Below are positions 5,273 to 5,594 of a DNA stretch of 10,911 nt, piece after piece. Below the pieces are notes generated by a model. The model had not been told where the DNA came from and ran no database searches. It saw only the letters and a program-made list of their open reading frames with translations. A program made the position numbers and the translations under genes. Source of the stretch: a virus (taxonomy: Duplodnaviria; Heunggongvirae; Uroviricota; Caudoviricetes). Every line of letters begins with the position of its first letter. Position 1 is the first letter of the stretch. The stretch is from the IMG/VR virus record IMGVR_UViG_2541047120_000012; one strand, 5' to 3'.

Positions 5273-5392
5273 GAAACCAGAACATGCACACACAAAAAAA
5301 CCGCTTGCCATGCCGCAATCGGTCAGGTTACATTTCCGCTGCACCTCATAAAACGGGTGCCGGGATTCTCAACCCGATACAGAGCAAAGCGC

Positions 5393-5416
5393 ATAACCGC
5401 GCTAGCGGTTTTTTTG
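5393..5416 (+). terminator. Rho-independent terminator (stem AACCGC / GCGGTT, loop GCTA, U-tract TTTTT)
   Basis: Perfect 6-bp stem with 4-nt loop followed directly by a T-run on the + strand, about 120 bp after the stop at 5272. Confidence 0.6.
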
Positions 5417-5428
5417 TGCGTACTGTAT

Positions 5429-5457
5429 TGCCACGTCTTTTTCGCGTCAGAATTATG
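5429..5457 (+). promoter_or_regulatory. Candidate sigma70 promoter TTGCCA-N17-AATTAT
   Basis: Hexamers with 17-bp spacing just downstream of the terminator and upstream of the 5595 gene; weak match to consensus. Confidence 0.3.
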
Positions 5458-5594
5458 GCGGGGCGTACGGGGCCGACTTCGGTCGGGCCGGATTCTTTGC
5501 TCTCCGGTGTTGAGAACCCTGTACGTCTCGCCACCCCGAGATTCTCAACTCTGGATGGTGAGTTATTTCTATCACCGAGCAAAGAGGCCACACC

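Follow-up and report, generated by a model that had tools for sequence, protein, structure and literature searches.

A probable IsrK-C4 RNA immunity module upstream of gpA in a P88-like prophage of Escherichia coli O157:H7

The 322-nt non-coding gap that interrupts the early genes of a P88-like prophage (positions 5273-5594) is very probably an IsrK-C4 RNA immunity module of the P1 immI or P4 seqA-CI-seqC type, in which a C4 antisense RNA would block expression of the P4-epsilon-like gene that follows. The window analyzed here is the whole stretch of 10,911 nt (IMG/VR record IMGVR_UViG_2541047120_000012), and a scan of all of it with the Rfam covariance models gave exactly two matches, isrK (RF01394) and C4 antisense RNA (RF01695), both within the gap, both over the full model and both above the gathering score. 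The original prediction, made from the letters of the DNA, had drawn attention to the gap for its rho-independent terminator, a promoter-like site, a hairpin with a UUCG loop and three copies of the core GATTCTCAAC; all of these are present at, or within 1-2 nt of, the positions given for them, and the Rfam matches and the co-variation described below place them far beyond chance. The element itself is an ordinary member of a known and curated system, hence of low novelty. In a literature search, neither expression data for this O157 locus nor a paper on an IsrK-C4 module of P88-like or P2-like phages was found. Nor was a description found of the setting, a P2-like phage whose first regulated gene is epsilon-like and precedes gpA; this is a point of context and not of kind.

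The window represents a P2-family prophage of the P88/Xuanwuvirus type (P2-like), adjoining yecA in E. coli O157:H7. Its gene order starts with the integrase, followed by a C-type repressor of 134 aa on the minus strand, a Pe-like promoter (2460-2488), Arc-like and Cox-like genes and then small early genes, after which the gap extends from the stop codon of a 99-aa ORF (5272) to an ATG at 5595. Directly after the gap, the plus strand carries a 76-aa gene that RefSeq names a "derepression protein" (5595-5825), orf121 (5898-6263) and the gene of the replication endonuclease gpA (6270-9092; Pfam Phage_GPA match, 2e-131), with ParM and a plasmid-stability (StbB-like) protein after gpA. In the O157:H7 genome inspected, the RefSeq annotation places no feature in the gap, and a scan for tRNA and tmRNA genes likewise found nothing. 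The region is 100% identical across many O157 genomes and has matches in 1,178 of 5,426 complete E. coli genomes. From the Pe-like promoter to gpA the plus strand has a single clean terminator, and it has no promoter-like site from 5457 to 7564, so that transcription to orf121 and gpA must traverse the module. The earlier suggestion of a regulatory checkpoint ahead of the replication genes is well founded in this respect, and the arrangement would put both orf121 and gpA under the control of the module.

The upstream RNA of the pair is an IsrK-type sRNA encoded on the plus strand at 5341-5415, the equivalent of P4 seqA and P1 c4-a1b1 (63 bits, gathering score 50, E 7e-12, all 77 model positions covered). 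It corresponds to the small RNA ending at the terminator that had been offered as one explanation of the gap. The RNA is made up of hairpin 1 (5341-5360), hairpin 2 (5361-5376) and an intrinsic terminator (5395-5415), whose stem AACCGC/GCGGUU at 5395-5410 is followed by a U7 run ending at 5415. This architecture recurs in most of 95 loci, with the pairing site a1 (see below) inside a hairpin loop in 62 and a hairpin followed by a U-run in 69 of them.

The downstream RNA, a C4-type antisense RNA on the plus strand at 5451-5538, scores 78.5 bits (gathering score 45, E 2e-14) across all 87 positions of its model, and from the ends annotated for its P1 homologue c4 the mature form is predicted to span approximately 5457-5535, or about 79 nt. 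A 17-bp outer stem, formed by 5456-5472 with 5517-5533, encloses two hairpins, the first of which (5473-5486, CCGAC-UUCG-GUCGG) is the UUCG hairpin of the original prediction; what had been taken for a free-standing structure is hairpin 1 of C4. Hairpin 2 (5487-5508) carries the pairing site b' as its loop, and a second site, a', is single-stranded after it. C4-type loci were gathered from IMG/VR with a structure-based pattern that gave 123 hits; the C4 RNAs of P1, P4, ASU11 and Stx2_131990 fall outside the relaxed pattern and were taken from Rfam matches instead. The outer stem is perfect in 99 of the 123 pattern hits, and over 55 distinct stems it co-varies, with many types of Watson-Crick pair at each position. 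By Rfam, the pair of isrK and C4 is also found in P88 and in Stx and other lambdoid phages.

The repeated core that had been noticed in the gap is functional as a set of RNA pairing sites, termed a1, a' and a2. GATTCTCAAC occurs on the plus strand at 5364 and 5540 and, with one mismatch, on the minus strand at 5509-5518. Further copies of the dyad core had been proposed as something to look for, and within the window the perfect 8-mer TTCTCAAC is found exactly three times, at 5366, 5509 (minus strand) and 5542, all in the gap, with the arms of the dyad 25 nt apart. The chance expectation for this 8-mer is 0.32 copies, and three copies are reached in 2 of 200 shuffles. A second complementary trio, GAGCAAAG/CUUUGCUC, had been missed and is laid out like the a trio, with GAGCAAAG on the plus strand at 5382 and 5577 and on the minus strand at 5495-5502.

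Read as RNA from the plus strand, the two trios resolve into six sites distributed over IsrK, C4 and the mRNA. Site a1 (5366-5373, UUCUCAAC) lies in the loop and 3' arm of IsrK hairpin 2 and is the complement of a' in C4, while b1 (5381-5389, AGAGCAAAG) lies in a single-stranded stretch of IsrK and is the complement of the b' loop. In C4, b' (5492-5503, AUUCUUUGCUCU) is the 12-nt loop of hairpin 2, with pairing to b1 and b2, and a' (5509-5516, GUUGAGAA) is single-stranded between hairpin 2 and the 3' strand of the outer stem, with pairing to a1 and a2. The mRNA target sites are a2 (5542-5549, again UUCUCAAC), which begins 6 nt after the predicted 3' end of C4, and b2 (5577-5587, GAGCAAAGAGG), which overlaps the Shine-Dalgarno sequence AAGAGG (5582-5587) of the gene at 5595. 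Predicted duplex energies are -14.3 kcal/mol for b'-b2, -12.5 kcal/mol for b'-b1 and -10.3 kcal/mol for a'-a2.

The same geometry is found across the family while the sequences that form it vary widely. The 105 distinct C4 loci contain 57 different b' loops and 38 different a' segments, combined in 68 ways, and a locus carries, at the expected position, a complement to its own a' or b' of 7 nt or more in 97% of cases for a1, 64% for b1, 90% for a2 (situated at about +8) and 80% for b2. When the C4 of one locus is set against the flanks of another, pairing drops to 2-4% (4% for a1, 3% for a2). The first downstream ORF has its start codon 6-12 nt after b2 in 87 of 88 loci, and the genes regulated first elsewhere encode Rha or Bro-N antirepressors or epsilon-like proteins, or are the small ORF that comes first in P4-like elements.

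A covariance analysis across homologues, which the original prediction had named as a check, was carried out on a closer set of 13 P88-like relatives with a mean column identity of 90% over 260 nt. The only variable spots in this set are the six a and b blocks, and these change in step. For a1·a' together with b1·b', 96.4% of cells are paired and both partners have changed in 11 of 17 pairs; for a'·a2 together with b'·b2, 96.4% of cells are again paired, with changes on both sides in 10 of 17 pairs. The observed pairing is reached in 0 of 500 shuffles in either case, and controls in which the blocks were slid reach at most 56% and 49%, respectively. Within these totals, the b1-b' helix is 100% paired with both-side changes in 7 of 9 pairs, and the b'-b2 helix is 100% paired with both-side changes in 6 of 9. 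P88 itself differs from the window in specificity, having a' UGUGGAAA and b' GUUCUGUAGUUG, and the a and b types reassort among relatives. The a/b sequences are proposed to set the specificity of an RNA immunity. In the hetero-immunity of P1 and P7, specificity is set by a' and b'. An a/b specificity shared with the O157 Stx phage PA2 was not found, its a' being two nucleotides off, its a1 one, and its b' unrelated.

These patterns also bear on whether the copies of GATTCTCAAC might be DNA operators for a protein that controls entry into replication, as the original prediction had allowed. Three copies of an 8-10-bp sequence, two of them in a dyad, could serve as such sites, the orientation of a copy being irrelevant on double-stranded DNA. 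However, the sites sit in the loops and single strands of two curated RNA families, and a second, unrelated motif has the same 1-1'-2 arrangement; the copies and this second motif are mutually complementary RNA segments that change together. Moreover, near-identical relatives differ in their a and b types and combine them in different ways, and the flanking proteins do not track the types: this holds for the neighbors tested (the epsilon-like protein, orf121 and gpA), and loci of one a/b type carry different C repressors. Lastly, b2 always lies on a Shine-Dalgarno sequence, a placement that is sensible only at the level of RNA. A role as protein-binding sites is thus almost certainly wrong, and pairing between RNAs accounts for the repeats instead.

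Two promoter-like sites on the plus strand need to be told apart. The predicted sigma-70 promoter of the module, the better placed of the two and overlooked in the original prediction, is the site at 5305-5334 (TTGCCA-18-TACATT), which ends 6 nt before the first nucleotide of IsrK and has a predicted +1 at approximately 5341, coinciding with the IsrK 5' end. Its hexamers, TTGCCA and TACATT, are kept in P88-like relatives even where the spacer differs. Of 86 distinct loci, 61 have a -10-like hexamer whose first base is exactly 37 nt 5' of the a1 core, an offset identical to that in the window, and 40 of these 61 also have a -35 match of at least 4 of 6 positions. The position of this site is conserved, and it is predicted to be the promoter from which the module is transcribed.

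The site that had been proposed as a promoter at 5429-5457 is a match at 5428-5456 (TTGCCA-17-AATTAT) with 9 of 12 consensus positions, kept in close relatives like the rest of the region. This site abuts the C4 5' end, and as a promoter for C4 it finds no support, since a start 7 nt downstream would fall in the outer stem and yield a transcript that lacks the 5' strand of that stem, and since the -35 is not conserved in the family. At the C4 5' end, only T at -3, A at -1 and T at 0 before GG are conserved across the family (TtAU|GG). The 5428-5456 site is therefore probably not the C4 promoter, and the UUAU|GG at its 3' end appears to be the conserved context of the C4 5' processing site. A U at -1, a G at +1 and an ACC after the stem, resembling a tRNA 3' end, form a family-conserved context in the window that is similar to that of RNase P cleavage. 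U(-1)/G(+1) and ACC after a stem are marks of RNase P substrates, and the C4 of P1 is such a substrate. Judged from the sequence, the bases before GG would fit an RNase P cleavage site better than a promoter.

It also has to be asked whether the gap is a gene after all, encoding an Ash-like or "transcriptional regulator" protein from a 205-codon frame (5284-5901) or from an ATG at 5455. The 205-codon frame, which the original prediction had passed over, is open across the gap, and in most relatives too; its translation has PHROG "regulator" matches of 1e-7 to 1e-15 and a match below threshold to Pfam Phage_ASH, and orf45, a short ORF over the equivalent region of Gifsy-1, is translated (PMC4825925). 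Nevertheless, the PHROG and Pfam matches cover only the residues that translate isrK and C4, the length of the C4 loop plus a' goes from 17 to 21 nt and not in steps of three, and substitutions cluster in the complementary blocks and not at third codon positions; the 205-aa ORF was rejected as a real gene. Downstream of the RNAs, the variable columns fall mostly at the second position of the long frame, which is the third position of the epsilon-like frame, and RefSeq calls no gene in the gap. A protein-coding origin of the gap is accordingly highly improbable. Counts of open frames over the RNA region are uninformative, as a short GC-rich stretch is often open in several frames and on both strands.

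The matches of the translated gap appear to say something about the protein families themselves. Phage_ASH is above threshold on the historical "cI" ORF of P4, exactly over the CI RNA. BLASTP finds no homology between this ORF and the 205-aa ORF of the window. On the annotated "antirepressor" of ASU11, Phage_ASH covers the first 107 residues, exactly over isrK and C4, with the Rha domain starting from residue 123. Phage_ASH and several PHROG "regulator" families thus appear largely to model a translated RNA gene.

The 76-aa protein encoded directly after the module (5595-5825) matches Pfam PF25738 Derepression (31.9 bits against a gathering score of 27) and, by BLASTP, is 32% identical to P4 epsilon over 50 aa (E 6e-9). 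A function as antirepressor of the phage's own C repressor is doubtful, because the window and P88 have unrelated C repressors but epsilon-like proteins that are 95% identical. The target of the protein is probably not the phage's own repressor, as far as these comparisons go, and the type of RNA immunity likewise assorts independently of C type. In BLASTP, the next protein, orf121, showed no homology to P4 orf151.

Among known systems, the immI of P1 and P7 matches closely in layout. The annotated immI region of P1 (P51 - a1 b1 - c4 - a2 b2 - icd - ant) has the order of the window and near-identical spacing, with approximately 67 nt from b1 to C4, a2 following C4 after 3-6 nt and the start codon 7-10 nt after b2; P1 c4 has an annotated length of 77 nt. 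Both loci place b2 on the ribosome-binding site of the first gene, and both have a C4 family match. The upstream element differs, the best match in P1 being c4-a1b1 (RF03163) and in the window isrK (RF01394) with an intrinsic terminator, as do the regulated genes, which are icd and ant in P1 and the epsilon-like gene, orf121 and gpA in the window. Published work already regards these elements as a single system, and the motifs "c4 antisense RNA" and "c4-a1b1" are both listed by Weinberg et al. 2010 (PMC2864571).

In P4, isrK and C4 match in the same order as in the window, isrK on the inferred seqA and C4 on the CI RNA, although the record annotates neither. P4 and the window share complementary sites upstream and downstream, then an epsilon-family gene and then a replication gene, the P4 layout being P_LE - seqA - CI RNA/seqB - seqC - ... 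epsilon - orf151 - alpha. P4 alone has a small first ORF (~64 aa) between seqC and epsilon, a region that presumably corresponds to the eta/kil genes, whereas in the window b2 lies directly on the epsilon-like Shine-Dalgarno. The replication protein is a P2-type gpA nickase in the window and the alpha primase-helicase in P4, the element that carries the module is a complete P2-like phage equipped with a C/Cox switch of its own as opposed to a satellite, and the a/b sequences of the two differ. In P4, the RNA is an immunity factor that gates the replication genes (PMC3632133, PMC4825925). P4 seqA and CI have been described as structural homologues of IsrK and C4 (PMC3632133, PMC4825925), and IsrK conversely as a structural homologue of P4 seqA (Hershko-Shalev et al. 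2016, PMC4825925).

A third comparison is with the isrK-orf45(STnc1160)-anrP locus of the Salmonella prophage Gifsy-1, where IsrK has its own promoter and a leaky terminator and a regulator of prophage induction comes next (PMC4825925). STnc1160, located downstream of IsrK, is a processed RNA, and it and IsrK have complementary sequences in common (PMC3632133, PMC4825925); from this description it is taken here to be a putative C4-type RNA. In contrast to the window, Gifsy-1 is a lambdoid prophage, and its module controls the antirepressor AnrP and, through AnrP, the antiterminator AntQ (PMC4825925). A further difference is that the 45-codon ORF downstream of Gifsy-1 IsrK is translated and coupled to anrP, whereas the frame in the window has 148 codons and no coding signature.

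By comparison with these systems, a mechanism can be proposed for the prophage. RNA would start at approximately 5341 from the 5305-5334 promoter, and most transcripts would stop at the intrinsic terminator to give a 75-nt IsrK-type sRNA that exposes a1 in a hairpin loop and b1 in a single strand. Read-through RNA, together with transcripts arriving from the upstream early operon, would run on into C4, which would probably be excised by RNase P and 3' trimming as an antisense RNA of approximately 79 nt. The b' and a' sites of C4 would then pair with b2 and a2 on the mRNA, and with b2 covering the Shine-Dalgarno, translation of the 76-aa epsilon-like gene would be blocked. When the antisense RNA of P1 or P4 prevents the first gene from being translated, transcription is ended prematurely by Rho (also cited in PMC4825925 and PMC3632133). 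As in the P1 icd-ant and P4 alpha operons, the untranslated RNA of the prophage may be ended early by Rho, so that expression of orf121 and gpA would be kept low. Such polarity on gpA is suggested by this analogy and by the absence of predicted promoters within the stretch described above. The antitermination or attenuation site of the original prediction is close to this in spirit only: transcription would indeed be cut short ahead of the replication genes, but by way of blocked translation and Rho. From 5600 to 5900 there is an excess of C over G, which is weak as an indication of a Rut site, the flanks being biased likewise.

The a1 and b1 sites of IsrK would be extra copies of the target, or decoys; by binding C4, or the part of the long transcript that contains C4, they may tune the switch. 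The effect of IsrK could run in either direction, as a co-target that aids repression, in the manner of P4 seqA, or as an anti-antisense activator, in the manner of Gifsy-1. The latter would be in keeping with a different account of the module, a possible though on balance unlikely one, in which the long read-through RNA is silent with a1/b1 or a2/b2 paired in cis with a'/b', IsrK opens it in trans, and C4 does not act chiefly as a free repressor in trans. The minimum-free-energy fold of the read-through RNA 5341-5610 does pair the b'/a' region in cis with a2...b2, IsrK bears the same a1/b1 decoy sites, and experiments at the homologous isrK-orf45-anrP locus support an mRNA that is locked in cis and opened by a short IsrK (PMC4825925). 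The RNase-P-like context and the 17-bp outer stem are, however, strongly conserved, which argues that a discrete, excised RNA matters. In addition, processed C4 or CI RNA is the trans-acting immunity factor of P1, P7 and P4 (also cited in PMC3632133 and PMC4825925). The cis-locked switch and repression by C4 in trans are compatible and do not exclude one another.

With repression by a C4-type RNA as the preferred reading, two curated RNA families account for a gap that carries no annotation, and how they work is known from studies of P1, P7, P4 and Gifsy-1. The case also has a bearing on annotation, as gene callers, Phage_ASH and several PHROG "regulator" families appear to model a translated RNA module, with mislabelled genes and over-extended antirepressor ORFs as the result. 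The P88-like set forms a clean natural series of specificity swaps on a constant scaffold, and could be used to study how the specificity of a three-site RNA evolves. If C4 does gate the epsilon-like gene and gpA, the module would offer a handle on the induction and replication of a common O157:H7 prophage. More tentatively, and with the odds somewhat against it, P88-like phages of the P2 family may have acquired the RNA immunity of P4-type satellites along with an epsilon-like gene, and thereby a second immunity layer, independent of C, that controls entry to their own gpA. If so, the six hypervariable a/b blocks would define many specificities that reassort freely on an invariant scaffold, independently of C type, and the layer could serve in exclusion between related prophages, or in defense against or cross-talk with P4-like satellites and the antirepressor modules of Stx phages in the same O157:H7 cell.

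Several protein families overlap the isrK + C4 RNA module of the window, that is, the IsrK-type sRNA (5341-5415) and the C4 antisense RNA (5451-5538). The open frames concerned are 5284-5901 (+) in the window, 8168-8584 (-) in P4, and 2458-3120 (+) in ASU11. The conceptual translation of the module is the only part matched by Pfam Phage_ASH (PF10554), and matches to PHROGs 995, 821, 6928, 29966, and 3960 ("transcriptional regulator/repressor") are likewise confined to it. The old P4 "cI" ORF, which lies over the CI RNA, has an above-threshold Phage_ASH match, as do the N-terminal 107 residues of the annotated "antirepressor" of ASU11, in which the real Rha domain begins at residue 123. 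Phage_ASH, the PHROG regulator families, and many gene calls look like translated RNA genes.

A 148-codon open frame (5455-5901, +) begins with an AUG that is conserved and lies at the 5′ end of C4; it passes through the epsilon-like gene (5595-5825, +) in a different frame, and its TGA stop (5899-5901) overlaps the orf121 ATG (5898) as ATGA. The frame is open in nearly all of the 13 P88-like relatives, but the substitutions among them do not fit it. In the Salmonella prophage Gifsy-1, a 45-codon ORF, orf45, is translated, and it is coupled to the gene that follows (PMC4825925). The second AUG of orf45 is at about the same transcript position as the AUG of the 148-codon frame, and orf45 probably lies over the equivalent region.

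The window and P88 share 95% identity in the epsilon-like "derepression" protein, whereas the C repressors of the two are unrelated, being a 134-aa type in the window (2046-2450, -) and a 93-aa XRE type in P88 (1170-1451). Such identity despite unrelated repressors argues that the target of the epsilon-like protein is probably not the phage's own repressor. A 72-nt gap (5826-5897, +) separates the epsilon-like gene from orf121; around 5838-5868 it holds an inverted repeat rich in GC (GGCC...GGCC) that has no U-run. Further along, 3′ of gpA, a ParM with StbA_N/ParM domains and a plasmid-stability protein are encoded (9169-10447, +); together they make up an actin-type partition system, suggesting that this P2-like prophage has a plasmid-like phase or that the system serves a stabilising function. 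The Stx2a phage Stx2_131990 carries an ALIL pseudoknot (RF01497, 121 bits; 4566-4682, -), a frameshift element of the IS3 family, at a distance of about 2 kb from its isrK-C4 module, which indicates a nearby insertion sequence.

When window 5338-5599 is aligned with 12 relatives, the six complementary RNA pairing segments of the module (a1, a′, a2, b1, b′, and b2) are the sole hypervariable spots in a 260-nt scaffold that is almost invariant elsewhere, with a types and b types reassorting independently of each other. For the joint change of three separated sites, recombination between modules seems likely.
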